Shown piece after piece: positions 3,201 through 19,854 of a stretch of DNA of 64,000 nt (its first letter is position 1; each line of letters begins with the position of its first letter). The translations under genes were made by a program, and so were the position numbers. The notes under the pieces are model-generated. The model was given only the letters and a program-made list of their open reading frames with translations, was not told the DNA's origin and did no database searches. This stretch comes from Thermoplasmatota archaeon (GTDB taxonomy: Archaea; Thermoplasmatota; Penumbrarchaeia; Penumbrarchaeales; Penumbrarchaeaceae), in the NCBI GenBank assembly GCA_965234725.1, contig CBDDUX010000014.1, positions 1-64,000 of the forward strand, given 5' to 3'.

Positions 3201-4617
3201 ATCCATAAAGGAACAGGTCACCGGATGGGTCCTGTATCGCACCATTGAGGCTGTCAAATCCGTTTCCCCCCATAAATGATGCATAGACAAGATCGGTTCC
3301 ATTGGGTAACAATTTAACGACCCAACCATCATAAGTTGAACTTATTGAGCTTGAATATGCATCTGATGTTACTGGAAAATCTGTTGAATTTGTATAACCT
3401 AAGAAAATAATATTCCCATCTTTATCTATCTCGATATCCATTCCAAAATCATCCTCTGAACCCGAGATAAGCGTTGAGAATATTAGACCGGTTCCTGTTT
3501 TATTCATTCTTGTAACGAAGCCGTCCCTCCATCCTCCCTTTGTCTCATTCTGGTAACAACCAGGAGTTGTCTGAAAATCATAGGATTGAGTATACCCCGA
3601 AATAATGGCTTCCCCATCGACCACTCTGAGACCACCTTGTTCTTCCGCATCACTTCCTCCGAAAATAGAGGAGTAATCCAGTGTTCCAAGGGATTTGTTC
3701 ATCTTGGTGATAAACATATCTCCAAAGACTCCGGAGTAACCAGGTTTTATGGTTCCGGGTGTCGTTGGAAAATCAGTGGAAAATGTTTCTCCTGCAACGT
3801 AATAATCGCCATTTTCATCTGTTTCGATATTTTGTATGTTATCTGAAGAGGATCCACCCAAGAAAGTCGATCTGATAATGGGGTCGATGATGACGGGTCT
3901 TGATGGATCCCTACCCTTGAGTTCGAATCCGAAGATTCTTCCGTTGCCGCTGAATCTTGCAGGTATTACCGACAGATCATCTGCATAATAAGTCAGCAAT
4001 CCCGAATCGATGAAATTATTATCGTCTGGTAATGAGAAGATCAGTTCACCAGGTTTGATCTCCACTCCATCTTGTCCCTCACATTCGATCTGGATATCAC
4101 TCACTTTAGACCCTGGCATGACAGTGAAGGAATATTTTGCCCCATCTTCCGTGATGATATAATCAAGGTCGATACCATCCCAGAGGTTTCTGTACCGAAC
4201 TCCCTTATAGCTCATAGCTCCTGAAACCCATTTCGATGGATCATTCCCTTTGAAATAACTTGTGGGGTATGATAATCTATCCAATCCGATTGGCAAAACA
4301 TCGTTTGAATTGAGGAAGCTCATCTTCAAGATGGTTATCATTTCCTCTTTATCCTGGTCGGAATATGATCCAATCTGGTGGAACAAAGCATCCGGACCGA
4401 GGGCTATTCGGCCGTATGATGTCTCACCAACAAATGATATCTCCTCACTCCACTGACCAAGGTTTTCGATGAAATGACCTTCAGGGTCCATCTCTATCTG
4501 ATCCGGATTCTCTGTTGTCCAATATGTATCTTCAGAGTTACCGTCGGTAAGACCTGTTAATATTGTCGATAGCATGAGGAAAGCTATCAGTGGGGTGATC
4601 ACACTCCCGTATCTCAT
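271..4617 (-). CDS. Secreted, membrane-anchored SBBP (beta-propeller) repeat protein with FN3 and Ig-like repeats and a C-terminal TM helix
   Basis: 1448 aa. Signal peptide, FIENLGQW N-terminal domain, repeated STFLGGSxxD...YVAGxTxSxDFPTTPGAYD units, FN3 (LTWKTPPDDGGRPITGY), TM helix followed by RKR, disordered tail. GGAGGTGA RBS; ATGA overlap with the upstream gene. Confidence 0.85.
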   Translation of the reverse strand: MRYGSVITPLIAFLMLSTILTGLTDGNSEDTYWTTENPDQIEMDPEGHFIENLGQWSEEISFVGETSYGRIALGPDALFHQIGSYSDQDKEEMITILKMSFLNSNDVLPIGLDRLSYPTSYFKGNDPSKWVSGAMSYKGVRYRNLWDGIDLDYIITEDGAKYSFTVMPGSKVSDIQIECEGQDGVEIKPGELIFSLPDDNNFIDSGLLTYYADDLSVIPARFSGNGRIFGFELKGRDPSRPVIIDPIIRSTFLGGSSSDNIQNIETDENGDYYVAGETFSTDFPTTPGTIKPGYSGVFGDMFITKMNKSLGTLDYSSIFGGSDAEEQGGLRVVDGEAIISGYTQSYDFQTTPGCYQNETKGGWRDGFVTRMNKTGTGLIFSTLISGSEDDFGMDIEIDKDGNIIFLGYTNSTDFPVTSDAYSSSISSTYDGWVVKLLPNGTDLVYASFMGGNGFDSLNGAIQDPSGDLFLYGSSSSNDLYFPSGAYDNTMSGPGDCWIIRTDFNISTIKRATLWGSVGYEALSDMVINSEGNLIMDAYGSGFPVTPGAFDQSQNGANDIVISEMDPTLSTLNFCTYLGGSGDERFSKLEIDSNDNIFISGYTQSTDFPTTPGAYDESYNGTNNVNAFVTKLDSDGTYLMYSTFLGGSGSEFNSESVQISDYNLVLVGRTNSPDFPVTKGAYDTKAPSGTNNKGYITELSLLSPPSKPMDLTSKMGYDWVELTWKTPPDDGGRPITGYQVWMVQKGHVPKIVQTVSSLTLTYNISGLIPDGDYQFYVKAVNTIGTSYPSNIIRFFDSIKPWIDMDLTTSDLTPLGKTTFSVRALDNTFLDSIFVEYWRGDHFGHMNISMEEVGPGTYSYSVDHPDEVFELGYVFHLNDTSNNWIESQRFSINITGDIRPTIASDMTPENVKAGDVLKFKVKAWDNDEIRSVHLEYWSNSQQSFNVTMDEISPDVFEYKYLTKRYSLVPIDYVFHVMDGSSHWNISEQRSVSVIDVDSPVLSSDRTPVEAYAGKSILFDIFISDNQRINDTWVHYSINDGLLMNESLVKGQGGSYQLTIDVPDVLGRISYTFYSIDENGNIGWLPVKEIPIIDIDDPEIIEDKTNISIFDPEVLELAFELKDNIEIGSAIVEYWFNDGDHLNTNLAGEVVWEGSIKFPSYMTGIISYFVTVFDSSGNSIESEVNTFNFEDVQKPVFIEDLTRPFAETGGDLNIIVRTIDNIGIRKVRLEYGYSDTLTDTMDLERKEIFYTANIKVPSDDISPFNYRYVIVDILGNTFVTEQFQVLIQDTILPEIIPQQDIKVSTKTSINLMIEASDNIGIAELKITGSPITPVDGKIVGIIEEPGIYLVTVEALDQSGNKDTFSFKIEVTSSDENNDDAKSGIPVWMMIPPILTIILLVISIILFFRKRSGKKDDPLHTPLPGSSESTSGISNPSIPDESPSELDGLFGS

Positions 4618-7600
4618 GATATCACCTCCTCATTTAGAGTATTGAGGAATTGATCGATCTCCTCATCTGTTCTTGGTATAGCACTGTCAGATTGGATCAG
4701 GACCTGACCGGTCTCGGATCCATCCTCGATCGGTCCATCTAACTGAACAGGTGGTTCCTGCTGCTGTTCATCGACCATTTCGTAAGGTTCAGGCTCGATA
4801 GGTGAAGTTCCTAACTGGCCGATTTGAACATCATTTTCTATCAAGTTGACTTCTGTAACTGTCAAATCCTCGATCTCGGATTCGATAGAAGACCTTCCCT
4901 CTTCTTTTTGAGTCTCACTCTTTGATACTTTTTTCTTCAGAGCGAGGAAGATCAGGATGATAGCGATTATCAAGGGGATCAGTGTGAAAACGATCATTAG
5001 GATAATTGAACCTGATGAAGAATCCTCGTCCTTGTTAATAAGGGATATTTCAGACGACTGGACATGTTCGGAGGCCCCAATATCATTCGAAGTGTATATC
5101 CTATAGTTGTATTCGACACCTGACCTGACATTTTTATCGATGAATAATGAAACATCACTCTCGAGATCAACGATCTGGAAGAAATCTCCTCCATCTACCG
5201 ATCTCTCGATAATGATCTTCATTTCACCAGTTCCTTCATCATCGACCTGATCCCAGGTCAATTCGATCCTGTCTTTATATCTAACGACTTCAAATGATTC
5301 TATTTTATAAGGGATCCTGAAAGCATACGATTTGATCTGATCACTCGAAGGTCCGGTTCCGATCTGGTTTTTCGCACTGATGGAATATTGATATTCCTTT
5401 CCAGGGACCACGGATAAATCCTCATATGGAACTGTCCCTGGATCTACCTCGATTTCTGTTAGGTCTCCACTTTCGATCTCGATCCTCTCAATTATGAAGG
5501 CGATCAGGGGAGAACCTCCATCGGAGATCGGACCTACCCATGAGAGAATGAGGATCCCATCACCTTGCTGGATTATTGGATCCAGCGGTTCCGATGGGAT
5601 ACCATATGTCATAACACGGATCTCTTTCGAAAGATCCGATTCACCATGGATATTGTATGCAGATACTATATATGCGTATTCTAATCTTGGTAGTATCTTA
5701 GTATCGTTGAACTCGAAGGTGGACGCATCAACTTCAGCTATCATCAGAGGATCCCCCGATTGATATCTGTATATTCTGTATCCGATTATTGGGCTTCCAC
5801 CGGTATTGTTTACCTCATTCCAACGGACAAGCACATGCTGGTCAGAGTTGGAGATCAATTTAAGTTCTGGAGTTGAGGGAATCGTTAACGGAATTACCTC
5901 TATCTGATCTGTCCAATCTGATTTCCCCACATCAGAGACCGCTCTGAGGGAATAGGAGTGGACAAGTCCATTCTCCAGGCCCCCATCAACATAGGTGAAA
6001 ACATCATCAGAAATTTCGATCCTGACCTCCAGATCCGATATCTTTCTCAGGATCTCGTAACCTGTTATAGGAGATCCTCCATCATTGATGGGTCGTTCCC
6101 ATTCGATAATTGCTTCACCATTTCCTGCGTGAACCTTGAAGAAAAGTGGTATGGAAGGCCTGCACATTGGTACTGCTAATATCGTCTCCGATGGAATGGA
6201 TTCACCTATCTGATTGACAGCAGTAATGTAGTATGAATATCCGATACCATTTATGACCTGTGTGTCATTGTAAGAAAGGGAATTGGGACCGAGGACCTTC
6301 AGAAGTCTAGCCTGGTCTTCCTCCATTATTCTGTAAAGATTGAAATTATTGATTATGGACCCCCTGCTATTTTCAGGTTTTTCCCAGGTGAGTTGATTGA
6401 ATTCATCACCTGAGACAGCGGTCAGATTCCTTGGCGATGTGGGAACATCCTTGGCAATACCAGTCTTATGGACCGATTGCTCTGATCTACCAACAATATT
6501 GATTGCTCTTATACAATAGTTATATTCAATCCCTGCAATCACATCCTGATCTACCAGTTCAAATTCTCCGGGACCGAAATGGATCGATACCATCTCTGTG
6601 TCATTCCATTCCTTTTCAATAACAAACCCGGTTATGAATGTTCCACCATCCTCCAGAGGAGGGGACCATTCTATAGTGATCATCTTGATCCCGGATATTA
6701 CATCAAAACCAAGGGGAGCGGAAGGGACATCAAGGGGAATAACAGAAATGACCCCCGTTGGGAGTGAATTCACTGCAAGATTGGAGGCTCTCAACCAATA
6801 TTTGTATTCATTTCCATTCACTACATCGGTATCATTGTAGATATTCACTAGACCAAGATCGATGGTCTCTATGATGCCGGTTGCATTTACAAGTTTGAAA
6901 AGTTGGAATCCTGCAAGGTCCTGGGATCCATGGTCATCCGGATCAGTCCATGTCATTTCAACGAATCCTCCCCCGGTCCTTGCTTTGAAATTCCTCGGTA
7001 TCGTTGGTGGGGTGTCAAGAGATAGTCCCATTATGTAAGCATCTTCAAACCCATTATGGGTCCTGTCGTAAGCTCCGAGAGATGTCGGGATCGAAGCATT
7101 ATCCGTCCATCCAGTAAAGCATATGTGACCGTTGGGATCAGAATATACGGATAAGGTCGCATCAAACCAACCATCTCCTCCAATATATGTTGAATAAAGG
7201 AGGTCCTTTAGATCGTAGGAGATCGATACAACAAATCCGTCATTTGATCCTCCCTTGTATACTGATTGAATAGCGTCACTTGTGACAGGAAAATCCATGG
7301 ATGACAGATCACCTACTATCGTCACCCTGTTAAACGGATCGAGAACCATATCGATGGGTCCATCTCTACTTGACCCGCCGATGAATGTTGATTTCATTAT
7401 AGTGAAATCTGTTCCATTCAATTGAGTAACAAAGATATCACCGCCACCCTTGTTCGTTGTCTGGTAGACTCCAGAAGTAGCCGGGAATCCATCAGAATAA
7501 GTGATCCCTGTCAGCCAGATATTCCCATCCGAGTCCAGTTCCAATCCATATCCACCCTCTCCATCTGATCCGCCTAAAAAAGAACTGTAGAGGATCTGAT

Positions 7601-9101
7601 TGCAATTGGAATTGATCTTCATAAAAAAGCACTCACTTGATCCCTCGTAGGTACTATCAAGGGGATCAGATGATAATGGAAATTCGTCGGACCTTGTCAT
7701 TCCCGTAATATATGCATTTCCAGCTTCGTCAACATCCAACCCGTTTATCCTGTCATCTTCCGCTGTTGAGATATAAGTGGAGTACGATAGTTGACTCATC
7801 ATGGGGTTGATCTTGAACAGGAATGCGCTGATATCTCCGCCACTATAATCATCGTCTATGTTGTTATTTGTTATGGGGAGGTCCTCGGATGATGTCCATC
7901 CACCAATATAGCAATATCCAGTTCCATCAACCACAAGGTTGACCACCGCATCCGTCCCGGCACCTCCATAATAAGTAGCTGTCAGGAGATCGGTCCCCGT
8001 TGGATTCAATTTGATCAAAAATACATCCCATCCCCCATCTATTGTATCATCATACGCTGATCCGTGGGTGGGAATATCTGTAGAGGTCGTTCTTCCGGCA
8101 ACAATAATATTCCCGTTTCCATCCCTTTCTATTTCGAAACCTGTATCATCACCTTCACCACCAATAAGTGTACAAAAATCAAGATCTGTCCCATCTGGGT
8201 TGAATTTCGCAACAAATGCGTCAAGGCCCCCCATTCTATCGGTCTGATAACTTCCTGCAGTCAATGGAAAGTCCCAGGGAGAAGTTTGACCTGTAACATA
8301 CGAATTACCCTGATCATCCATTACTATACCTTCGGAATGGTCGGAAGTCGATCCTCCCAGATAGGTTGAAAAAACGACTGGGTCAATAACTACGGATCTT
8401 GTTCTGTCATAGTCACCTAGATCATATCCATATGTCAGTTGATCTATCTGTTTGAACGAGGCTTCGATCCTCTCACCATTATCTTGGTAATATACGAAAA
8501 GGTCCTTCTCTTCGTAGATCACATCATTGGGAAGGATTATCTCCACTTTTTCAGAATGAACATCAATATCCTTTACACCTTCAAAGGAAATCTTGATCTC
8601 CTCAACAGGAGAGAGGGGTTTCAAGATCAGATCATATTTCAATGTTGCTCCTATGGAAGAAACCTTCATATCGATACCCGCGTATAAATTCTCATATTTA
8701 ATAGATCTGAAAGAGGAAATTCCCGAGACCCATTTGGACTGATCCCTTCCTATCAGATAGTTGAAATTTGTTGACGTGATATCCGATCCTTCGGGGAAGG
8801 ATCCTCTGGCACCTACAAAATTCATTTCAAAAGCGTTAATCTTATTATTCGATTGCTCAACAAACATTATGGAATCATCTTTGAATGCCACTCTACTTGA
8901 TCCCCTTGTATAGAAATGAAATGGATCATCAATTTGTCCCTGGTTTTCAATGAATTCCAGTTCAGGATCGGAATTTACAGCCTGATCTGGAATGTCTATA
9001 TCATCAACAATATTTTCTGAATATACCATAGCAGGTGTATACATCAATATACCAACTGCTAACAAACCGGCCAATGATAGAGGTTTCATATTATCACTCA
9101 C
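4614..9101 (-). CDS. Secreted, membrane-anchored SBBP repeat protein with about 7 FN3 domains and a C-terminal TM helix
   Basis: 1495 aa. FIENQGQ N-terminal domain, STYLGGS repeats, multiple WxxPxxDGGSPIxGY FN3 motifs, TM helix followed by KKK, acidic tail. Paralogous to the neighbouring gene. Confidence 0.85.
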   Translation of the reverse strand: MSDNMKPLSLAGLLAVGILMYTPAMVYSENIVDDIDIPDQAVNSDPELEFIENQGQIDDPFHFYTRGSSRVAFKDDSIMFVEQSNNKINAFEMNFVGARGSFPEGSDITSTNFNYLIGRDQSKWVSGISSFRSIKYENLYAGIDMKVSSIGATLKYDLILKPLSPVEEIKISFEGVKDIDVHSEKVEIILPNDVIYEEKDLFVYYQDNGERIEASFKQIDQLTYGYDLGDYDRTRSVVIDPVVFSTYLGGSTSDHSEGIVMDDQGNSYVTGQTSPWDFPLTAGSYQTDRMGGLDAFVAKFNPDGTDLDFCTLIGGEGDDTGFEIERDGNGNIIVAGRTTSTDIPTHGSAYDDTIDGGWDVFLIKLNPTGTDLLTATYYGGAGTDAVVNLVVDGTGYCYIGGWTSSEDLPITNNNIDDDYSGGDISAFLFKINPMMSQLSYSTYISTAEDDRINGLDVDEAGNAYITGMTRSDEFPLSSDPLDSTYEGSSECFFMKINSNCNQILYSSFLGGSDGEGGYGLELDSDGNIWLTGITYSDGFPATSGVYQTTNKGGGDIFVTQLNGTDFTIMKSTFIGGSSRDGPIDMVLDPFNRVTIVGDLSSMDFPVTSDAIQSVYKGGSNDGFVVSISYDLKDLLYSTYIGGDGWFDATLSVYSDPNGHICFTGWTDNASIPTSLGAYDRTHNGFEDAYIMGLSLDTPPTIPRNFKARTGGGFVEMTWTDPDDHGSQDLAGFQLFKLVNATGIIETIDLGLVNIYNDTDVVNGNEYKYWLRASNLAVNSLPTGVISVIPLDVPSAPLGFDVISGIKMITIEWSPPLEDGGTFITGFVIEKEWNDTEMVSIHFGPGEFELVDQDVIAGIEYNYCIRAINIVGRSEQSVHKTGIAKDVPTSPRNLTAVSGDEFNQLTWEKPENSRGSIINNFNLYRIMEEDQARLLKVLGPNSLSYNDTQVINGIGYSYYITAVNQIGESIPSETILAVPMCRPSIPLFFKVHAGNGEAIIEWERPINDGGSPITGYEILRKISDLEVRIEISDDVFTYVDGGLENGLVHSYSLRAVSDVGKSDWTDQIEVIPLTIPSTPELKLISNSDQHVLVRWNEVNNTGGSPIIGYRIYRYQSGDPLMIAEVDASTFEFNDTKILPRLEYAYIVSAYNIHGESDLSKEIRVMTYGIPSEPLDPIIQQGDGILILSWVGPISDGGSPLIAFIIERIEIESGDLTEIEVDPGTVPYEDLSVVPGKEYQYSISAKNQIGTGPSSDQIKSYAFRIPYKIESFEVVRYKDRIELTWDQVDDEGTGEMKIIIERSVDGGDFFQIVDLESDVSLFIDKNVRSGVEYNYRIYTSNDIGASEHVQSSEISLINKDEDSSSGSIILMIVFTLIPLIIAIILIFLALKKKVSKSETQKEEGRSSIESEIEDLTVTEVNLIENDVQIGQLGTSPIEPEPYEMVDEQQQEPPVQLDGPIEDGSETGQVLIQSDSAIPRTDEEIDQFLNTLNEEVIS

Positions 9102-10185: not shown

Positions 10186-11331
10186 TCAGATCTTCGGATA
10201 GCTGAAGAATATGGACTCCAAGCCGAAGGTTTCCTTCAGTATATCGCATATCTCCTGAACATGTTCCTTCTTGAGGATGGGGACTGCAAGGTAGTAGAAG
10301 GGTGGTAGGGTCCAAACCTCGAGCAGTGAATTGTTCACAGCCATTGGGTAGTTGGAGATCTTCTTCATTTTGGATACCTCATCCATGTCTGAGATATCAC
10401 CCCTCATCACCTGTCCGTAATCAATGAATCCCTGGTCATCCAGCTGGATTATATAATCGATCAGGTCCTCACCGAAATTCTCCAAGTTCTCTTCCCACTT
10501 CCTGAAGAAAAGGACACCCAGTCCTGAGTTCTTATCTCCATCATCCACGAAGTAGGCCATCTTCTCATTATCAATGGCCTTTGACTCTTTAATATCCGGA
10601 TAGAGTCCAAGCAGTTTTGGATCGAACCTCTTTTCCACCTTCACTTCCCTTTGTTCCGATGTCATGATCCCTTGTCTGAGCTTCTCATCATGAAGGGCCC
10701 TCGTAGTAGGATCGAGAAGGATCTCCTTGGAGTAATTGATCTCCCTTATCCTGTCCATTATAGTCCCCTCAATTACCTCCCCTTTATCCGGGTGATATTT
10801 CGATGCCAATTTTCTGTAAGCTTTCTTGATTTCATCCTGTGAAGCTGAATCCGAGACACCGAGGATATCATAGCAGTTCATCTTCTTACGATCAAGTTCC
10901 TTGAAGATGTTCTTCAGGTCTCTCTTGATATCGAAGTCTATCCAGGAAATATCGATCTCCTCTTCCACTTTCGCTTCTGGGATCTCCTTGATCTTCACAT
11001 CATGGTCCATGAAATGGTTCGTGTCCTGTGTGGCTGGATCATAGACCTCCCTCTGGTCCAGCTCCTTTTGTGTCATTGGCTGGTAGATACTGTTCATCCC
11101 TTCGAATTCATCTCGCGTTTCTTCTTTCTTCTCTTCGGGTTGTTCTGAAACCATGAAATCGGTAATAAGTGTCTCTTTCTCGATTGGACCTGTTTCTAAT
11201 ATCTCCTCAGTTCCATCCTCACTCTTTGTCTTTTGCTCCTTCTTTCCCCAGAACTTCCAGAATAACAGGTCTGAAATAAGGATGAGGCAGGTCCAGACTG
11301 TGGTCAGAAGAAGTAAGGATTGGACGATCAT
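10186..11331 (-). CDS. Membrane-anchored J-domain (DnaJ-like) protein
   Basis: N-terminal TM helix, acidic linker, J domain (YDILGVSDSASQDEIKKAYRKLASKYHPDK with HPD), unknown C-terminal domain. Confidence 0.85.
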   Translation of the reverse strand: MIVQSLLLLTTVWTCLILISDLLFWKFWGKKEQKTKSEDGTEEILETGPIEKETLITDFMVSEQPEEKKEETRDEFEGMNSIYQPMTQKELDQREVYDPATQDTNHFMDHDVKIKEIPEAKVEEEIDISWIDFDIKRDLKNIFKELDRKKMNCYDILGVSDSASQDEIKKAYRKLASKYHPDKGEVIEGTIMDRIREINYSKEILLDPTTRALHDEKLRQGIMTSEQREVKVEKRFDPKLLGLYPDIKESKAIDNEKMAYFVDDGDKNSGLGVLFFRKWEENLENFGEDLIDYIIQLDDQGFIDYGQVMRGDISDMDEVSKMKKISNYPMAVNNSLLEVWTLPPFYYLAVPILKKEHVQEICDILKETFGLESIFFSYPKI

Positions 11332-11907: not shown

Positions 11908-12672
11908 CTATATATCCAATTCCACCCCGATAGGGCAGTGATCTGACCCCATAACTTCATTCCGGATGAAGGCATCGCACAACTTGGCTTTCAATCCCTT
12001 GTTGATGAAGAAATAATCGATCCTCCACCCGATATTCCTCTCCCTCGCCCTGGTCTTGTAATCCCACCAGGAATAATTATCTCCCTCTTCATGCAACTCC
12101 CGGAAAGTATCCAGATATCCTGCAGAAAGAAACCTGTCTATCCATTCTCTTTCGATGGGAAGAAATCCGGACACATTTTCATTCTCCTTGGGTCTTGCAA
12201 GGTCAATTTCCCTGTGAGCGGTGTTCACATCACCGCAGACAATGATATCCTTCCCATTCTTACGATATTCCTCTGCCTTCTCCAGAAAACACTCATAGAA
12301 GTCCAATTTATATTGCAGCCTCTCAGCATTCTTCTTTCCGTTGGGGAAATAGATGTTGAACAGTGCATTATTCCCGAAATGTGTGATGAGGGTCCTTCCC
12401 TCTGAATCGAACCTGTCAACACCCAGGCCGTATTCCACTTCATCGGGTTCCTTCAAGGTCCAGGTAGTTACACCCGAATATCCTTTCTTTTCAGCAGATG
12501 AAAAATATTTATGATATCCTCCAAAATCCAGAACTTTACTCGGAAGCTGCTCAGGGTGGGCCTTTGTCTCCTGAATACATAGAACATCCATTCCATCCTT
12601 CTCAATGATATCAAGAAGTCCCTTGTTCAGGATAGCCCTTATCCCATTGACATTCCAGGATATCAATCTCAT
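11908..12672 (-). CDS. xth: Exodeoxyribonuclease III (AP endonuclease)
   Basis: MRLISWNVNGIRA, CIQETK, GYSGV, YFPNG, CGDVNTAH, WRIDY, SDHCP. Start moved to ATG 12672, which follows an AAGGGGGA RBS. Confidence 0.95.
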   Translation of the reverse strand: MRLISWNVNGIRAILNKGLLDIIEKDGMDVLCIQETKAHPEQLPSKVLDFGGYHKYFSSAEKKGYSGVTTWTLKEPDEVEYGLGVDRFDSEGRTLITHFGNNALFNIYFPNGKKNAERLQYKLDFYECFLEKAEEYRKNGKDIIVCGDVNTAHREIDLARPKENENVSGFLPIEREWIDRFLSAGYLDTFRELHEEGDNYSWWDYKTRARERNIGWRIDYFFINKGLKAKLCDAFIRNEVMGSDHCPIGVELDI

Positions 12673-12676
12673 TGGT

Positions 12677-13930
12677 TCAATCCCCCTTCGAAGTGGCCCT
12701 GATGTCCACTTCGGGGGATATGTCGATGATGCTGTGTCCTTTGACAAGATCGTCCGGAAGTCCCTCTTCTTCTCCTATTAGCTCAGGGAATAGCTCTATC
12801 AGTTTCTTGGTATTGTATGGGCCTGGTCTTATCAGCTTTGGCGGTTTCTTGGAAAGGTCCAGGACCGTGTGTCCGATCCTGTAAAGTGAAGGTCCCCCAT
12901 CCACTGCAAGCGTCAATTCCTCCCCAAGCTGTTTTAGGGCACCGGAAAGAGTTGAAGGAGGGGGCATCCCGGATATATTAGCAGAAGTTCCGCATATCTC
13001 GATCTTTTCCATGATCCTTTTCATGAAGGAGTTCTCGCCGTCGGCAAGGGATACGGTATCAAGTCCGGAGGTGACATAATCCGGAACCCTGTTACCCTTC
13101 TTCGGTAGAATGATCGAGATCGGACCCATTAGTTCGTTGAATAATAATTTCTCCACCCTCTCGGGTATCTCCGCATAATCGGAGAACTTCTCCCTGGGAA
13201 CGATCATTGTCAGAGGCATGGAATCACTCCGTTTCTTCAGTGTGTATACCTTCTTCACTGCATCCGGCCTCTTGATGGAGGCAAAGAGTCCGTATGTTGT
13301 ATCGAAGGGTCCGCAAAGGACCTCACCCTGCTCAAGGCGCTCTATTACTGTATCCACATATTTATCGTAGGCAGGATATATTTTCGTATTGCCCACCTCC
13401 TGTACCTCTGTATGTTCCTCAAGGGGTCTTGCTCTTGACGAGATGCCCCCTCTTTCCGTTATCATATTGAACAACCCCCCGCTCTCGATTACCCTTACCA
13501 TGAATGATGGAAGTTCCTTAAGTTCAGACTCCTGGTTCTTTGTCAGGTTCTTGAACTCATCTGTATATACCTCCACCTTATCCCCGGTATCACAGGTGTA
13601 GGGAAGATCCACATCCACGAAAACTGGTATCCCGTTATTCATCAGATTCCTCTTCATGATCGGTGAAATGGATTCCACAATGACGGCCTTGATCCCCAGA
13701 CACTTTATTGCAAGGGATGCATGCTCCCTTGAAGACCCCTTTCCAAAGTCTCTCTTTGCCAATATTATATCCCCGGTCTTCACCCCTTTGGCAAACTCCG
13801 GGTGAGAAGCTTCCAGGCAGTGCTTACAGTATTTTTCAGGCTCCATTGAAAGGTATTGGGTCGGAGCGAGCATATCCGTGTTAATCTCTTCTTCAAGGAC
13901 CCATACCTTTCCCCTAGTGATCAGGGTCAA
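12677..13930 (-). CDS. Fusion of an isopropylmalate/homoaconitate dehydratase small subunit (LeuD-like) and a divergent YrdC/Sua5 (TsaC-like) domain
   Basis: aa 1-160: INTD, FGKGSSREHA, RNxxNNG, GGL. aa ~180-385: PFDTTYGL, KKR, GP, TSANISG, DGG, HTVLDL, IRPG. TTG start overlaps the leuC stop. Confidence 0.9.
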   Translation of the reverse strand: MTLITRGKVWVLEEEINTDMLAPTQYLSMEPEKYCKHCLEASHPEFAKGVKTGDIILAKRDFGKGSSREHASLAIKCLGIKAVIVESISPIMKRNLMNNGIPVFVDVDLPYTCDTGDKVEVYTDEFKNLTKNQESELKELPSFMVRVIESGGLFNMITERGGISSRARPLEEHTEVQEVGNTKIYPAYDKYVDTVIERLEQGEVLCGPFDTTYGLFASIKRPDAVKKVYTLKKRSDSMPLTMIVPREKFSDYAEIPERVEKLLFNELMGPISIILPKKGNRVPDYVTSGLDTVSLADGENSFMKRIMEKIEICGTSANISGMPPPSTLSGALKQLGEELTLAVDGGPSLYRIGHTVLDLSKKPPKLIRPGPYNTKKLIELFPELIGEEEGLPDDLVKGHSIIDISPEVDIRATSKGD

Positions 13931-15162
13931 GATACCACCTCCTCGGGATGGGATATCATCCCTCTAATTGCAGTGGCTCCAGCCACAGCAGCTCCTGAGA
14001 TATAGATCCTTGATGTCTTTTCTCCCATTCTACCCTGAAAATTCCTGTTGGATGTTGTCAGGGCGACCTCCCCATCCGGTAATATGCCCAGGAATCCACC
14101 GGCGCAGGGACCGCAAGTAGGCATGCTTAAAACCCCTCCCGCATCCATGATGATCTTTAGATAACCCGCCCTCTGGGCAGCAGAATATACCGCCCTGGAA
14201 CCTGGTATGACCAGGAGTCTTACATCAGGATGGACCTTCCTTCCCTTAAGTGTGCCAGATAATATCCTGAGATCGTCCAGTCTGCCGTTTGTGCATGATC
14301 CTACAAATACCTGGTCCACAACCTTGCCTTCAAGATTTTCCACATCATCCGCATCATTTGGAGATCCGGGTTTGGCCACCTGGGGGCCCATGTCATCGAT
14401 GTCGATCGTCTCTGTATCCCAACCCCAATCAGGTGAAAGTGGCCCGTTCTCCTTGATGTCGGTTGTTATCAATGCTGCAACGGCAGAAGTCTCTGCTGCC
14501 ATATTGGAGATGGTCATCCTCCCATCATTTCCCATCCAATTCAGGATCTGACCGTCCATTTCCAGGATCCTGTTACTTCCTCCACCGCAGCCAAGCCATG
14601 AGATCATACGGAGGGCCAGGTCCTTTCCCTCACACCAAACATCAGGGATCCCTGAAAATTCCACTCCAAGAGGTTTGGGAACCTCCAACCAAAACTCACC
14701 GGAAGCCACTGCAGCTGCAAGGTCGGTTGACCCTACTCCCATGCAGAAAGCACCGAGAGCGCCTCCTGTTGTCGTATGAGAATCAGCCCCTATAACAAGC
14801 TGACCTTTCTGGACCCTTCCATCCTCGAAAAGGTGGACATGGCAGATGCCCTCTCCCCATTCGATCAGGTCTCTTATGCTGTATCTGGAGCTGAACTCTC
14901 TCATTGACCTGCAAGCTTCGGCACTGTCACGGTCTTTTGGGGGAGTGAAATGGTCCATGTAAAGAACGGTTCTCATAGCTGCTCTGAGGTATGGCAGTCC
15001 ATGTTCATTGATCAGATTTATTGAAGGAAGGGCAGTTACATCGTGTCCCATAATGATGTCCGGGTTGAAGACCGAATATTCCCCTACCTCCATGGTTCCC
15101 TCAACGAGGTGTTCCTTCAGTATACTTAGACCTAAAGAACTTGAGTAAGCTTGATCGTCCAT
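13927..15162 (-). CDS. leuC: 3-isopropylmalate/homoaconitate dehydratase large subunit (aconitase family)
   Basis: GHD, DH, EGICH, GADSHT, GSTD, GSCTNGR, CGPCxG (three Fe-S cysteines), TSNRNFxGRMG. Confidence 0.92.
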   Translation of the reverse strand: MDDQAYSSSLGLSILKEHLVEGTMEVGEYSVFNPDIIMGHDVTALPSINLINEHGLPYLRAAMRTVLYMDHFTPPKDRDSAEACRSMREFSSRYSIRDLIEWGEGICHVHLFEDGRVQKGQLVIGADSHTTTGGALGAFCMGVGSTDLAAAVASGEFWLEVPKPLGVEFSGIPDVWCEGKDLALRMISWLGCGGGSNRILEMDGQILNWMGNDGRMTISNMAAETSAVAALITTDIKENGPLSPDWGWDTETIDIDDMGPQVAKPGSPNDADDVENLEGKVVDQVFVGSCTNGRLDDLRILSGTLKGRKVHPDVRLLVIPGSRAVYSAAQRAGYLKIIMDAGGVLSMPTCGPCAGGFLGILPDGEVALTTSNRNFQGRMGEKTSRIYISGAAVAGATAIRGMISHPEEVVS

Positions 15163-16362
15163 CTATCCCCCCTCCGTAACATCAAGCTCGAATCCATTCT
15201 TCAAGGCAAAATCGATAAGATCATTCTCATCCTCGAGAGGTCCTAGGTCTACTGGTCTCTCCTTTACCATCTCTGTTAGTTTATCTATCTCATTCTCAGG
15301 GAGTCGGCATCCTTTCCTCTCAAGGAAATGTTTGACAGCAGCCTTACCCGTATGTTTGCCCAGTATGTACCTTTTGCCCAGGATACCCAAGACCTTCGGG
15401 TCGACCAGTTCATAGGTCATGGGATTGTTCAACATACCGTGAACATGGATGCCTGATTCATGTCTGAAAGCGTTATCACCAACCAATGGTTGGGTGAGGC
15501 CGACCTTAAGGTTCATCTCTCTGATGACCGTGTCACATGTGGATCCCAGCTTCTCATGATGGATGTTGGTTTTGATATTGAAATGCTTTTCATGGAATAA
15601 TAATCCTACAGCCAGCTGTTCAAGGGCGGTATTCCCGGCCCGTTCTCCTATTCCCGTTACCGTCACATCGACCTGCTCGGCACCAGCACGGATCGAAGCC
15701 AAGGTATTGGCAGTAGCTAGATTAAGATCATTATGGCAGTGAACACCAACTGGTATCTTGTCCTTGACCCCCTTTCTGATCTCTTTGACAAGAAGTGCCA
15801 TGTGCTCTGGTAAGGCGCAGCCAACGGTATCGGCTAGATTGACCACATCCACACCGGCCCTTGCTGCTTCCCTCATCAGATTGGTAAGGAAATCCAGGTT
15901 TGATCTGGTGGCATCCTCGGATGAGAACTGTACAGAGTCGAACTTCCCGGAAGCATACCTTATTGCACTGATCGATTTCTCCATCACCTTGCCCGGACTC
16001 ATGTTCAATTTGTATTTCATGTGAATGGGGGAAGTTGCTATCCAGAGATGAAGCCTTGAATAATTGGCTTTTTTAAGGATCTGGTGGCAGAGATCGATCT
16101 CTTCCTTCATAGGTCGGCATAACACTGCTATCTCTGTATTCTGGATATCCTTGGCGATCATCTCAACGGCCATTCTCTCGGAGGGACTGTTGATGGGGAA
16201 GCCCGCTTCAAGAACATCCACACCTACGCTTTCGAGAGCTCTGGCTATTATCAGCTTACTCTCTGGAGAGAGCTGAATACCAGGGGCCTGCTCACCGTCC
16301 CGAAGCGTTGTATCGAATATTCTAATGGTTCGAGAGAAAATATTCCCCCCTAACACGGTCAT
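15163..16362 (-). CDS. Short-form 2-isopropylmalate/homocitrate/citramalate synthase family enzyme (no C-terminal regulatory domain)
   Basis: DTTLRDGEQ, EAGFP, IATSPIH, EDATRS, HCHNDL, GIGERAGN, HESGIH, LGKHTG. About 399 aa from ATG 16362. Confidence 0.92.
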   Translation of the reverse strand: MTVLGGNIFSRTIRIFDTTLRDGEQAPGIQLSPESKLIIARALESVGVDVLEAGFPINSPSERMAVEMIAKDIQNTEIAVLCRPMKEEIDLCHQILKKANYSRLHLWIATSPIHMKYKLNMSPGKVMEKSISAIRYASGKFDSVQFSSEDATRSNLDFLTNLMREAARAGVDVVNLADTVGCALPEHMALLVKEIRKGVKDKIPVGVHCHNDLNLATANTLASIRAGAEQVDVTVTGIGERAGNTALEQLAVGLLFHEKHFNIKTNIHHEKLGSTCDTVIREMNLKVGLTQPLVGDNAFRHESGIHVHGMLNNPMTYELVDPKVLGILGKRYILGKHTGKAAVKHFLERKGCRLPENEIDKLTEMVKERPVDLGPLEDENDLIDFALKNGFELDVTEGG

Positions 16363-16516
16363 AAAGCCACGGCTGCTTAGGGAAAACAGTAATGTCTGGC
16401 TGTTATAAACACAGAGGGGGGGTGGTCGAAAGTAAAACAATTCGATCTACAAATCGAAGGCCTTATTTACCAACTCCTCTTCTTGAGCTGATAATCTTTG
16501 CGATCCAAGGGGATGA

Positions 16517-17197
16517 ATGATGCTCAAGGAATACCCGCTCGAGGATACTCTGCTGATAGGTTTTGAATTCCCTGTAGCCCTGGTCATAGAAGTGACAAAA
16601 CAGGGAGTTGTCCTTTCCAAGATGAGATACCTGAAGGCTTTGGGAGATGTCATCAATCAGACCATTAGATGTCCCATGATCACAATGTACGCCCACATGG
16701 GCACATTCAGGGATCCACATCTCTCTTCTGAGATGATAAGCCCAATGGGTGTTGACCTGATCTACTTGTTCCAGATCGATAAGCAATATTTCAACGAGAC
16801 AATAGAGGCTATTAAAAGGGGAAGGGCTACCCTTAACTTCCATAACCCTCAGACCAGGGATATGGCTAGAGGTCTTATGGAGAAGATAATGAAGAAAGAG
16901 AGGATCAACTTCAGGAGGCTATCGGCCCAGGAACAGGGTCTGATCCTGGAACCATATATCTACTATCTTCTTCAGAGAGTTGGAGAAGGAAAGAGGAATG
17001 TCCTCCAGAACGTTGAACTCCTTGAACGGGAAGGCGTTTTAAAATGCGAGATAGGCAATGACACTCTCAGATACAGACCTGGCCCGGCACCAACAATGGA
17101 ACTGGATATCCTTTTATTCACGGATCTAAAATACCTGCCATCAATTTTGAGAGGTCTTGAATCCCATGGATTCAAACACGAGATCCAGAGAGGTTAA
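16517..17197 (+). CDS. Hypothetical protein
   Basis: 226 aa ORF with an AAGGGG RBS, divergent from the leuA-like operon; no motif recognised. Confidence 0.65.
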   Translation: MMLKEYPLEDTLLIGFEFPVALVIEVTKQGVVLSKMRYLKALGDVINQTIRCPMITMYAHMGTFRDPHLSSEMISPMGVDLIYLFQIDKQYFNETIEAIKRGRATLNFHNPQTRDMARGLMEKIMKKERINFRRLSAQEQGLILEPYIYYLLQRVGEGKRNVLQNVELLEREGVLKCEIGNDTLRYRPGPAPTMELDILLFTDLKYLPSILRGLESHGFKHEIQRG

Positions 17198-17215: not shown

Positions 17216-19663
17216 TCAGGAATTCCTGTCAGGGACCAGGTAGATGTGGGTTGATTTTCCCTTCTTCCTGACTTCTATCTGACCCTTATCCTTGAGGGAT
17301 TTTATATTATAATTGACAGTTGAATTTGAGATCGAAAGTCTTTCGGATATCTCCTTCTGGGATAGACCAGGTTCCCCTTCAATTAGTGCCATGACATCTC
17401 GCTGGATGGGTGAAAGGCTTACTCTTACTTCTTCTATATTGTATCCAGCAGGATAGAACCTTCTGTACAAACCATCTTTTTGGCTTCTGATAAGGTTCTC
17501 CTTCTCCAGTGTATAGAGATGATGTGCAAGTGTGCCGTTGGTGAGATTGAGATTGACCAGTATGGACCTGAAATGCTCCCCGGGATTGTTCTGGACATAT
17601 ACGTATATCCTCTTTCTCAACCTGTTGGAAAGAAGATGTTCGGGTTTCAATTTACTGTATAACGGAAATAGACTGGCAAAGAGGGGATATTTGACATATT
17701 CAGTGTTGATGAAAAGAGCAAGGGAGGTGAGGATAACAGATCCACCTACAGCCACGGCAACAGCGGTGGAGGCATCGATCTCACCCGGATCGCCACCTGT
17801 CTGGGCATCCCCGGACCCTGTCCTTTTTGGAATCACATTGATGGGCTCGGTAAGGTCATTATCATTGATCTCAGATTCCTCCGATCCCTCTGAAGGTACT
17901 AGGATAGCTCTGATCTTCTGGGTGGATGGTCTTGCAGTCCAGTTGAATTTGAATGTGATCTCATCCCCCGAGGAAAGGGATATCGGTATTGATCCGATAA
18001 GATTGTTGGAGAACGAGTATGAGATCTCGTATAGCTCCAATGATATTCCGTTCATATCAATGTTCGAAGGATTGAGGACCGTGATATTTACCTGGACGGT
18101 CTCCCCTTCATCAATGGGTCTGTTTGGAAGGATGATCGACCTGACCGCAATATTGGGCAGTTCCATCATTTTAACAGGGACCTCGAAATCCGTGGCAAGG
18201 ACCCATTCCTTGTTCTCTTCCAATGGCACCTTGATATTGACATGGAATGAGAATTGGAGTGGCACCTCGTTGTTCCTGGGATAGAGGACCACTATTATTC
18301 CTCTCGATGTACCAGGGCCAAGACTGAATGAGGATGGATCGATGCTGGATATGAAACATGTTGGAAGGTCCTTCAGGTCAAGTACTATCTGGCTGGTTGA
18401 ATCTCCATTGTTCAGAACCCTGAACTTAATAATCACATCGGACCCGATCTTTGCATCCGAGATCTCGAGGTCAGTATAGGTGATGTTCGATCCTGAGGTC
18501 AACATTACAGTCATACTGCCTTCTATGACCTTTGCGTTGTCTGACCGTCCCCCCAGGGTGATATCGAAATCCCCCGAGGTCCCTTTAGGTGGAAGTAATT
18601 GTACCATCACGATCCTCGTTTCTCCCACTTCCAGGGTCGAAGAATCTCCGATATCGATCGTATACTGCCAGTTAGACTGTTCGAAGGAACCTGAAAGTAC
18701 CTTCAATTGAGGGTCGATCGTGGAAGGGAGAACTCCAGTATGGATCAGATCGAATTGCAGATCAAGCGGAGATCCGCTCTCCGCTTCCAACATGGCCTTT
18801 TTGGGGTGAATGGAGATCGTGGAAGGATTCACAACCCTGAAAATGAGGTCGATCCTGTCAGTTGCTTTTCCTGTCCCGTAACGTAAAAACATCTCTGATG
18901 AGGAATAAATGGATATGGTCTGGGAATCTCCAACCTTGCTCGTCTCAGGGACACCTATCAAGATCCTTGTAATAAAAATGGAATCACTGGAACCGGGTGG
19001 CAGAGTGACCATAAAGGAATCCTCTTCATCCTGGAATCTGGCATCCCAGCTGGACTGATGTTCCATGATCTTCAATGTAAGATCATCGATGATGTCTCCC
19101 TGGTTCCTTAACAGGATCTCCATGTAAGACCTTTGACCAGGGTAAACCTGGACCTCCATTTCCTTTTCCGCATCCGGGTATATCAGGAGTTCGTGGTCAA
19201 CTTCTGCTTCAAGTCTCACAACCGCAATTATGAAGGCTCTATCACCTGTAATATTTGCGATCCCATCGATTCTTATCTGGAATTCACCCTCGGGATCCAT
19301 CATCATATCCTTGGGTATGGAAACATCGAGAAGTATCGAGTTCCTACCCTGACCCGGTACTTTGACGGATCCTGTGATGTATATGTTCCAGTCCTCGGGG
19401 GACTGCATCTCCATGATCACAGTCTGCTCAAGTTCATGATCATTATTGAGCCAGATCCTGTATTCCAGCTCCTGGCCGGGAATTGCTGTTAGGATGGGGT
19501 AACCCATTTCAGTTACATCATCTCCTTCATCGGCCTCCATCGTAATGGTACCTTCATTAATCTGAGACCTGACCTGTCCAGATCCAGGGATAGAGATCAT
19601 TATTGCCACAGATGAGATCAATATGGCAATGAGGACCAGAAAGGAGGTCGACCGTATGTTCAT
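17216..19663 (-). CDS. Membrane-spanning one-component regulator: extracellular Ig-like (NEW3/CARDB) repeats, TM helix, tandem winged-HTH
   Basis: Signal peptide from MNIRST (start uncertain), CARDB-like end (EINDND), TM helix, RKRIYVYVQNNPGEHF..GTLAHHL and PGLSQKEISERL..STVNYNIK wHTH domains. Confidence 0.85.
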   Translation of the reverse strand: MNIRSTSFLVLIAILISSVAIMISIPGSGQVRSQINEGTITMEADEGDDVTEMGYPILTAIPGQELEYRIWLNNDHELEQTVIMEMQSPEDWNIYITGSVKVPGQGRNSILLDVSIPKDMMMDPEGEFQIRIDGIANITGDRAFIIAVVRLEAEVDHELLIYPDAEKEMEVQVYPGQRSYMEILLRNQGDIIDDLTLKIMEHQSSWDARFQDEEDSFMVTLPPGSSDSIFITRILIGVPETSKVGDSQTISIYSSSEMFLRYGTGKATDRIDLIFRVVNPSTISIHPKKAMLEAESGSPLDLQFDLIHTGVLPSTIDPQLKVLSGSFEQSNWQYTIDIGDSSTLEVGETRIVMVQLLPPKGTSGDFDITLGGRSDNAKVIEGSMTVMLTSGSNITYTDLEISDAKIGSDVIIKFRVLNNGDSTSQIVLDLKDLPTCFISSIDPSSFSLGPGTSRGIIVVLYPRNNEVPLQFSFHVNIKVPLEENKEWVLATDFEVPVKMMELPNIAVRSIILPNRPIDEGETVQVNITVLNPSNIDMNGISLELYEISYSFSNNLIGSIPISLSSGDEITFKFNWTARPSTQKIRAILVPSEGSEESEINDNDLTEPINVIPKRTGSGDAQTGGDPGEIDASTAVAVAVGGSVILTSLALFINTEYVKYPLFASLFPLYSKLKPEHLLSNRLRKRIYVYVQNNPGEHFRSILVNLNLTNGTLAHHLYTLEKENLIRSQKDGLYRRFYPAGYNIEEVRVSLSPIQRDVMALIEGEPGLSQKEISERLSISNSTVNYNIKSLKDKGQIEVRKKGKSTHIYLVPDRNS

Positions 19664-19854
19664 GAGAAACCAATCCCTCCAAAGACTATTTAAGCCCATT
19701 AGTACACGAATTGGATTGAAAATCGACATGGTCAAGGTTCGATCAGGAACCATGCCACCCATATCCGATCCAACCCATAAGGTCCCAAAGGAAAGAATTA
19801 TAGTAATCAATCTCATGACGGACCACCTGTCGGGGCGATCATTGAGGTATATTC

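Follow-up and report, generated by a model that had tools for sequence, protein, structure and literature searches.

The window, a 64,000-nucleotide stretch of contig CBDDUX010000014.1 from a Thermoplasmatota archaeon, contains a three-gene operon on the minus strand that encodes an isopropylmalate synthase (IPMS)-like enzyme, the large subunit of an aconitase-family dehydratase and a protein in which a LeuD-type small subunit is fused to a YrdC domain. Our comparisons showed that the YrdC part of this LeuD::YrdC fusion is evidently descended from a Sua5-type threonylcarbamoyl-AMP (TC-AMP) synthase, that its ATP residues are kept and its substrate pocket is altered, and that it apparently cannot be an ordinary TC-AMP synthase. 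Both halves of the fusion come from well-known families. The known reactions of the ancient YrdC fold are few, namely the synthesis of TC-AMP for N6-threonylcarbamoyladenosine (t6A) and of carbamoyl-AMP in HypF and TobZ/NodU, and the fusion, which can be cloned, is a concrete candidate for adding to them. We propose, tentatively, that the module makes a 3-alkylmalate-type acid which the fused domain would activate with ATP. The source genome (G000; 3.54 Mb in 114 contigs, 97.65% complete) was compared with 23 sister genomes of the same Thermoplasmatota family and with an outgroup of 17 genomes of other families. The operon and the parts of the fusion lie as follows:

16362..15163, minus strand: IPMS-like synthase, 399 amino acids (aa) from an ATG; the frame extends up to a TTG at 16440
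15162..13927, minus strand: aconitase-family large subunit, 411 aa
13930..12677, minus strand: LeuD::YrdC fusion, 417 aa, TTG start
13451..13930, minus strand: LeuD-type small-subunit domain of the fusion, residues 1-160
13346..13450, minus strand: conserved interdomain linker, residues 161-195, predicted local distance difference test (pLDDT) 67-82
12815..13345, minus strand: Sua5-derived YrdC domain with altered substrate pocket, residues 196-372, PF01300
12680..12814, minus strand: C-terminal tail, residues 373-417, a remnant of the Sua5 interdomain linker and possibly of the C-terminal KAS motif

The translational coupling described in an earlier note on this DNA was borne out by direct reading of the sequence: the TAG of the synthase abuts the ATG of the large subunit, and the TGA of the large subunit is overlapped by the TTG start of the fusion as TTGA. 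GGAGG-like runs precede both the large-subunit and the fusion starts. The products named in that note, a short unregulated synthase, an aconitase large subunit and a small subunit fused to YrdC, were confirmed by Pfam. The order of synthase, large subunit and fusion was kept in all five loci examined, which were drawn from four other genera.

Distribution and conservation of the fusion

The fusion matched PF00694 (Aconitase_C) over residues 54-101 (E 1.4e-13) and PF01300 (Sua5_yciO_yrdC) over residues 198-370 (E 6.8e-35). A search of 5.8 billion proteins returned 30 clusters in which both domains occur, 60-95% identical to the fusion, after which the next-best matches fell sharply to 36% identity over 45% of the query. 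The protein is full length and without internal stop in 16 of the 23 sister genomes, which span six genera, and partial in two more (G010, and G019 with a fragment of 49 residues); no copy turned up in the other five (G012, G014, G015, G022 and G023, with completeness of 65-90%) or in any of the 17 genomes outside the family. Uniqueness to one assembly, which the earlier note had held would undo its interpretation, is thereby removed. The source labels of fusion-bearing proteins in the databases point to Thermoplasmatota, for example "Thermoplasmatales archaeon ex4484_6".

The suspicion of an assembly or gene-calling artefact, to which the metagenome-type assembly of the source genome and two shorter related database entries (256 and 274 aa) might give rise, is already refuted by the open frame in the 16 intact copies and by a 1032-nt contig from an independent marine-sediment run that spans the LeuD-YrdC junction (12919-13950) and differs there by substitutions but not by indels, and since the 274-aa entry begins inside LeuD on a 1191-nt contig we give this explanation practically no chance.

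Two irregular copies were seen. The G010 copy (G010:C66:18280-19362) matches residues 58-417 only, and neither the synthase ortholog nor up226, the gene divergent from the operon that is described below, was found in that genome. In the database entry P0029 an unrelated N-terminus replaces about the first 60 residues of LeuD. Both could be rearrangements or chimeric contigs.

When 1.84 billion representatives were searched exhaustively by HMMER with the YrdC part, 12613 matches were obtained at E<=1e-3 and only two at E<=1e-30, namely the fusion's own cluster and an unnamed protein, P0121. Thus, the re-specialised YrdC domain essentially exists only in fused form. P0121 is a 331-aa FHA::YrdC protein with 38% identity, in which FHA stands in place of LeuD and the tail is absent; it shares the derived F209, D210, G298, C313 and G314 of the fusion and likewise has no Arg at position 296. 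Scans of its genomic context gave FHA-domain matches only (two loci on genome contigs and three on metagenome contigs).

A full-text literature search, which did not cover supplementary files, found no description of a LeuD-YrdC fusion. The existing labels are "Sua5/YciO/YrdC/YwlC family protein", "L-threonylcarbamoyladenylate synthase", "3-isopropylmalate dehydratase small subunit" and "hypothetical protein"; annotators should be warned that none of them covers the whole protein.

A Sua5-derived YrdC domain with an altered pocket

The AlphaFold model of the fusion has a mean pLDDT of 90.5 with both domains confident, and residues 394-412 of the tail fall below 50. The top Foldseek matches were S. 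tokodaii Sua5 (St-Sua5, 3AJE; E 4.5e-19, root-mean-square deviation (rmsd) 1.7 Å) and Thermotoga maritima TsaC2 (9DG5); TsaC2 of T. maritima also matched in the PDB sequence search (E 1e-26). Over about 200-215 columns the fold is the same as that of Sua5/TsaC2 (3AJE, 9DG5/9D3H and Pyrococcus abyssi Sua5 6F87), with rmsd of 1.7-2.0 Å. The likeness extends to the KxR...SxN tetrad, the bicarbonate-binding Arg and the linker scaffold P392/G398/S405/P406; the fusion differs in having no SUA5 domain, K-G-H and D-(L/I) in the linker motifs and a rebuilt pocket, in its place behind LeuD, and in the existence of a separate TsaC. YciO is, like the fusion domain, a YrdC-family paralog that coexists with a true TsaC; it is a stand-alone bacterial protein and a far weaker match than Sua5 (1K7J, E 5e-4), and it has been called inactive (PMC10321239). 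These comparisons showed the YrdC part to be a descendant of a Sua5-type TC-AMP synthase.

For the residue comparison, 21 aligned fusion proteins were set against 148 canonical TsaC/Sua5 sequences, and functional roles were taken from papers for His67, Arg195, Asn62 and the PGM/HY motifs only. Ten positions are invariant in all 21 fusions (F209, K232, R234, A296, S316, N318, H354, T355, R368 and G370). Among the residues kept from the canonical proteins are K232, R234, S316, A317, N318, T355, D358, R368 and G370, each of which has the same state in 126-148 of the 148 canonical sequences; agreement reaches 146-148 of 148 for the tetrad (K232, R234, S316 and N318) and R368. The last of these is equivalent to Arg195 of Pa-Sua5, which holds bicarbonate (PMC6004061). 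The survival of the ATP motifs, which the earlier note had read from a single sequence, thus holds across the homologs, and so do the changed states that it had singled out at F209, A296 and H354-T355.

Other near-universal positions have been changed. The fusions carry invariant F209 (T in 139 of 148 canonical sequences), T212 (V in 119), S272 (T in 125), A296 (R in 135), G298 (P in 131) and H354 (S in 136), and they carry I243 where 89 of the canonical sequences have H. The near-universal residues around the amino-acid site, namely the T of PT[ED]T, the R of VAVR, the S of (E)ST and the Sua5 His67, are all missing from the fusion. His67 contacts the hydroxyl of threonine (PMC10321239); I243 lies at or next to it, and the His column itself is Ile or a gap in the fusions. 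The fusion scored 115.6 bits against the TIGR00057 equivalog model, under the cut-off of 123.2.

The tail was aligned with 80 long Sua5-type proteins. It keeps P392, G398, S405 and P406 of the Sua5 linker, and the columns of the PGM and HY(x)P motifs hold K-G-H and D-(L/I)-S-P, respectively. The SUA5 domain of about 100 residues is deleted, its columns being all gaps, and no PF03481 match was found in the fusion. The tail ends in (K/R)-A-(S/T), which aligned with the KAS motif of Sua5, though this may be an end-of-alignment effect. The PGM and HY motifs are required for TC-AMP synthesis, as shown by mutagenesis in Pa-Sua5 (PMC6004061) and likewise in TsaN. Taken at the level of residues, these results showed that the domain can hardly be an ordinary TC-AMP synthase.

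A separate canonical TsaC is present in the genome, so the fused domain is not the sole YrdC copy. This protein of 221 aa scored 136.8 bits against TIGR00057, above the cut-off of 123.2, and carries PTDT, VAVR and HST. It was found in 21 of the 23 sister genomes. The genome has three PF01300 domains in all, the third being in a 778-aa frame on contig C45 that is taken to be a putative HypF. In the sister genome G004 the TsaC match (G004:C5:143570-144233) is broken up into two pieces that overlap (residues 1-176 and 142-221) and contains stop codons, which suggests a frameshift, due either to a sequencing error or to a broken gene; the fusion is intact in G004.

The mean pairwise identity among the 17 full-length fusions is 80% in the YrdC domain, 59% in LeuD, 68% in the linker and 70% in the tail, and G161, G162, S164 and P169 of the linker are invariant. 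By comparison, the housekeeping TsaC orthologs of the family are 36-53% identical to that of the source genome, except for 76% in G004. These identities showed that purifying selection apparently acts more strongly on the YrdC domain than on LeuD; by this measure the YrdC domain is constrained and not decaying.

HypF and TobZ/NodU offer a precedent for a domain of the YrdC fold that has turned from threonine to another use and is joined to a cooperating enzyme (PMC9654439). Their partner is a Kae1-like ASKHA transferase, whereas the partner here is LeuD, and the fusion has no Kae1-like domain. HypF was among the Foldseek matches of the fusion (E 9e-11), and neither HypF nor TobZ matched in the PDB sequence search at E<=1e-3. 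The genome has one Kae1/TsaD match (PF00814) and none to PF02543 (Carbam_trans_N), the NodU/TobZ-type family.

The acid-building enzymes and the metabolic background

The synthase matched PF00682 (E 1.9e-79) and PF22617, the HMGL-like and HCS_D2 domains, and gave no Pfam match to the LeuA_dimer regulatory domain. Its best NCBIfam model was the 2-isopropylmalate synthase NF002086 (430 bits, below the cut-off of 532, over positions 5-363 of 516), and its best PDB matches were the IPMS catalytic domains 3RMJ and 3EEG (E 5e-77). It is therefore LeuA-like in its TIM barrel with the R-D...H-x-H ligands and in subdomain II, and departs from LeuA in the regulatory domain and in falling below the equivalog cut-offs. 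The motifs LRDGEQ, RLHLW, FSSED, NLADTVG and HCHND are present, LRDGEQ and HCHND being found in all six orthologs checked. In the pocket the IPMS His, Ser and Asn are kept, Ala replaces the IPMS Pro and Trp replaces the IPMS Phe; the mapping of motifs to pocket residues is one that we presume from work on Mycobacterium tuberculosis and plant MAM enzymes. There is no Arg at the position where homocitrate synthase (HCS) presumably has one. From these features we infer that the substrate is probably an aliphatic 2-oxo acid. It is the genome's only LeuA-type synthase, its best match outside the family is 43% identical, and an ortholog occurs in 18 of the 23 sister genomes.

The large subunit is a LeuC/HacA-type [4Fe-4S] dehydratase (PF00330, E 9.6e-75), which scored 421.7 bits against NF001614 (above the cut-off of 385) and 382.3 against TIGR02086 (below 410.15), has Cys290, Cys350 and Cys353 within GSCTNG and PTCGPCAG, and is 33-35% identical to the genome's three other aconitase-type large subunits. 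The LeuD part scored 126.9 bits against TIGR02087 (LEUD_arch), above the cut-off of 108.95, and matched 3VBA, 1V7L and 2PKP by Foldseek. These are archaeal small subunits of isopropylmalate isomerase (IPMI) or homoaconitate isomerase from Methanocaldococcus jannaschii (3VBA and 2PKP) and Pyrococcus horikoshii (1V7L), with target-normalised template modelling scores of 0.85-0.89 and 33-40% identity to the LeuD part; the fusion differs from them by six changed positions and a C-terminal extension of 257 residues. G65-S-S-R-E69, the GSSRE motif, is invariant in the fusions. Together, the model score, GSSRE and the cognate three-Cys large subunit identify an IPMI/homoaconitase (HACN)-type small subunit, and they showed the dehydratase to be a divergent, yet by all these signs catalytically complete, IPMI-type Fe-S enzyme.

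The atypical character of LeuD, which the earlier note had pointed out, proved to be real. LAPT.YL replaces (F/Y)PG(K/R)(Y/F)L, DFGKGSS replaces NFGCGSS and PIMKRN replaces RIF(Y/F)RN, and these oddities are conserved in 13-17 of the 17 full-length fusions. The six changes are F/Y22A, G24T, N61D, C64K, R90P and Y93K, and 68-72 of 72 comparison sequences have the canonical states. The recognition loop (residues 25-30) reads YL(S/T/M/G/H/N)(M/L/S/Q/T); having no Arg, it is not homoaconitase-like. It matches neither of the loops that we take to be characteristic from work in M. jannaschii, YLRT for homoaconitase and YLVY for IPMI.

The claim of the earlier note that LeuB is missing holds for the operon and not for the organism. 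No PF00180 dehydrogenase was found in the window, and none is near the operon; the genome's only one, a LeuB/AksF-type protein of 371 aa, is on contig C77 (L004:1489-3313). Its gene has a class I lysyl-tRNA synthetase gene and an NAD-kinase-like gene on either side, with no LeuCD beside it, and overlaps the start of a 239-aa S-adenosylmethionine methyltransferase of the generic Methyltransf_11 type. In three of four loci from other Thermoplasmatota families a dehydrogenase of this type directly follows a LeuCD pair of the kind found on contig C27, and because of this synteny we assign it to another LeuCD pair. The C27 locus itself (L025:6955-11185) carries a 607-aa fused LeuC-LeuD, then LeuC (420 aa), LeuD (162 aa) and an HD-domain protein, and no synthase was found near these dehydratases. 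A similar arrangement occurs in a genome of another family (L032:3923-6213), where the large subunit of a LeuC/LeuD pair shares 49% identity with the fused protein and an HD-domain protein comes next; in L032, the gene that follows the dehydrogenase matched no Pfam family.

The module appears not to be needed for the standard pathways, as judged from three parts of the genome. First, IlvD gave no match and KARI_N only weak partial matches in this 97.65%-complete genome. With no IlvD and no convincing IlvC, 2-oxoisovalerate and isoleucine would not be makeable in the usual way. Second, LysX is present in 12 of the 24 family genomes, with no match above the cut-off in the source genome, and 11 of those 12 genomes carry a second synthase, 33-36% identical to that of the window, on the contig of LysX and within about 2.5 kb of it. 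A different gene, absent from the source genome, thus encodes the lysine-type homocitrate synthase; the window synthase neither clusters with lysX nor is orthologous to this HCS paralog, as an HCS of the LysW/α-aminoadipate lysine pathway would be. Third, a citrate cluster on contig C3 (L026:17-9067) encodes an AclA-like protein with a CoA-ligase and a partial citrate-synthase domain, a 747-aa monomeric isocitrate dehydrogenase, CitF, CitE and a 640-aa aconitase (965.6 bits against a cut-off of 612). The only citrate-synthase match of the genome is the partial Citrate_synt domain inside the AclA-like protein; a full-length enzyme was not found.

Two candidate roles were set aside on the evidence of this C3 cluster and of the IPMS-like motifs of the synthase. 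One was a Re-citrate synthase acting in the tricarboxylic acid cycle, which the merely partial Citrate_synt match had brought up and for which C3 already has aconitase, isocitrate dehydrogenase and citrate lyase. The other, set aside more provisionally, was isocitrate as a carba-analogue of N-carboxythreonine serving as the substrate of the YrdC domain.

Possible activity of the module and its neighbouring genes

In the proposal that the module makes a 3-alkylmalate-type acid and that the fused domain activates it, the synthase would condense acetyl-CoA with an aliphatic 2-oxo acid and the dehydratase would isomerise the 2-alkylmalate to the 3-alkylmalate. In place of oxidative decarboxylation by a LeuB-type enzyme, the fused YrdC domain would then adenylate a carboxyl of this hydroxy-diacid or of a compound closely derived from it. 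Such a step (R-COO- + ATP -> R-CO-AMP + PPi) would follow the same chemistry as the adenylation of carbamates, which YrdC enzymes perform (PMC9654439). The acyl-adenylate might be captured by its own hydroxyl to give a lactone, or by a nucleophile or partner, possibly up226. The earlier note's interpretation is in this respect partly supported: that a non-standard hydroxy acid is built and adenylated remains the best reading of the operon, though a conditional one, and we hold it to be a little short of an even chance.

The nearest functional parallel is known from bacteria. In the ioc/leu, cystargolide and belactosin systems, the output of IPMS and the isomerase is diverted before LeuB by a co-encoded adenylate-forming enzyme, and 3-isopropylmalate is adenylated at C4 by CysF (demonstrated) and by IocS (proposed) on the way to beta-lactone proteasome inhibitors (PMC9177418, PMC11427300). 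The cys and bel routes also need a methyltransferase and a hydrolase. IocS and CysF are bacterial enzymes of the ANL superfamily (PF00501), whereas the fusion is archaeal and of the YrdC fold, so the likeness is one of function and not of family membership; the eight PF00501 matches of the genome are all on other contigs, and none is in the operon. On this model the YrdC fold might have been recruited as a carboxylate adenylator, possibly a lactone synthetase, tethered to the isomerase that supplies its substrate, with a beta-lactone or amide metabolite as the product and up226 as a further component; in this specific form the idea is rather improbable. Adenylation of such an acid would, if true, be a reaction new for the YrdC fold and a new fate for alkylmalate intermediates in archaea, and a lactone or amide product would make the module an archaeal counterpart, on a different fold, of the bacterial IOC/cystargolide warhead pathway. 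The host belongs to an abundant, uncultured lineage of marine sediments whose metabolism is known from genomes only.

Several observations weigh against activation of a module-built acid. To our knowledge, no YrdC-fold enzyme adenylates a plain carboxylate rather than a carbamate. The recognition loop of LeuD is variable among the 17 orthologs, which is odd for a tightly specified substrate. The orientation of the two domains in the model is without confidence (predicted TM-score 0.64), so that channelling is unsupported. No acceptor, exporter or resistance gene was identified downstream, and up226 has no recognisable fold: its AlphaFold2 model has a pLDDT of 70.2 and gave no PDB match by Foldseek at E<=0.001. 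Finally, not only the PGM and HY motifs are replaced in the fusion, as described above, but also the equivalent of Asn62, which is Met238. Asn62 contacts pyrophosphate and ribose (PMC10321239), and because of these replacements the domain could bind nucleotide without catalysis.

These losses, together with the deleted SUA5 domain, lend themselves to the explanation that the YrdC-like domain is a non-catalytic pseudoenzyme which, as a scaffold or as a sensor of nucleotides or metabolites, would regulate or stabilise the dehydratase, for example as a stand-in for the missing feedback domain of the synthase, which has no LeuA_dimer. The failure to find an acceptor enzyme beyond the single Kae1, with no Carbam_trans_N protein, fits this as well. 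However, pseudoenzymes usually lose residues of the catalytic type, and here the tetrad, R368, T355 and D358 are invariant though the LeuD parts have diverged to 51-59% identity. Furthermore, short TsaC enzymes work without PGM/HY or a SUA5 domain (PMC6004061). We consider a pseudoenzyme unlikely.

Ordinary 2-oxo-acid elongation (leucine, citramalate or similar), finished in trans by the C77 dehydrogenase and with YrdC unrelated and fused by an accident of gene order, would make good use of a LeuB/AksF-type enzyme in a genome whose sole LeuA-type synthase has IPMS-like motifs. It would have to do so with no IlvD and no convincing IlvC, and with a dehydrogenase whose relatives are operonic with C27-type LeuCD in three of four outside loci; two of those other-family genomes, G037 and G039, have no LeuA-type synthase at E<=1e-20. 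An accidental fusion also sits poorly with a re-specialised YrdC domain that is found only fused and with a conserved linker. This explanation seems somewhat less probable again than a pseudoenzyme.

The remaining explanation concerns tRNA. In it, the domain would make the carbamoyl-adenylate of a module-built amino or hydroxy acid other than threonine, which the sole Kae1/KEOPS would move to tRNA as a new t6A-like nucleoside. The TC-AMP synthase fold and the kept ATP and bicarbonate residues are what speak for it. LeuA/LeuCD chemistry, though, gives 3-alkylmalates and not beta-hydroxy-alpha-amino acids, the operon has no aminotransferase, a canonical TsaC coexists with the fusion domain in the family (21 of 23 sister genomes) beside only one Kae1 in the source genome, and the HY/PGM motifs are lost. 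The t6A variant suggested in the earlier note, perhaps resembling the hydroxynorvaline-derived hn6A, is disfavoured on the same grounds and by the want of a NodU/TobZ-type transferase. According to PMC7430679, hn6A is made by ordinary TsaC/TsaD, with canonical TsaC/TsaC2 accepting hydroxynorvaline and TsaD acting as gatekeeper, so that no dedicated synthase is needed. A tRNA role is in our view quite improbable, more so than either of the two explanations before it.

The genes and intergenic region that border the operon are:

16517..17197, plus strand: up226, 226 aa, divergent, of no known family
16363..16516, no strand assigned: divergent intergenic region between the synthase and up226
11908..12672, minus strand: xth (exodeoxyribonuclease III), 321.5 bits against TIGR00633 with a cut-off of 99.05

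up226 gave no Pfam or NCBIfam match. It is present in 18 of the 23 sister genomes, which are exactly those with the synthase ortholog, both genes being missing from the same five, and it adjoins that ortholog wherever both coordinates are given. It is thus co-inherited with the operon; related genomes are not independent of one another, and the pattern is no proof of function. None of its 35 homologs is named, and 34 of them have no Pfam domain, the other having PF20473. Forty-four residues are invariant, many of them polar, and Atlas gave only weak nucleotidyltransferase-like leads (score 0.90, 88/256 features shared). In the intergenic region, a TTTATAA on the minus strand (16409..16403) precedes the synthase ATG by 41-47 nt and may be a promoter. 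Among 13 runs, no RNA holder of the sequence was listed.

The ATG of xth lies 4 nt past the stop of the fusion. Because xth follows the fusion directly in only two of the five other loci (L018 and L020), it is probably a housekeeping passenger. The operon, whose three genes form a paralogous set peculiar to the family, is a family-specific, vertically inherited module that consists of up226 in divergent orientation, the synthase, the large subunit and LeuD::YrdC, sometimes with xth.

Beyond up226 and tail to tail with it, an 866-aa protein is encoded at 17216-19816 of the window (minus strand); it has a CARDB-like region and ends in winged-helix domains of the HVO_0163 and HTH_24 types, and its position was kept in all five loci examined. 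On the other side, two genes of the minus strand seem unrelated to the operon. One, at 10186-11331, encodes a membrane protein of 381 aa that has a DnaJ domain in its middle, and the other, at 4614-9101, a protein of 1495 aa, secreted or anchored, in which fibronectin-like modules are repeated many times.

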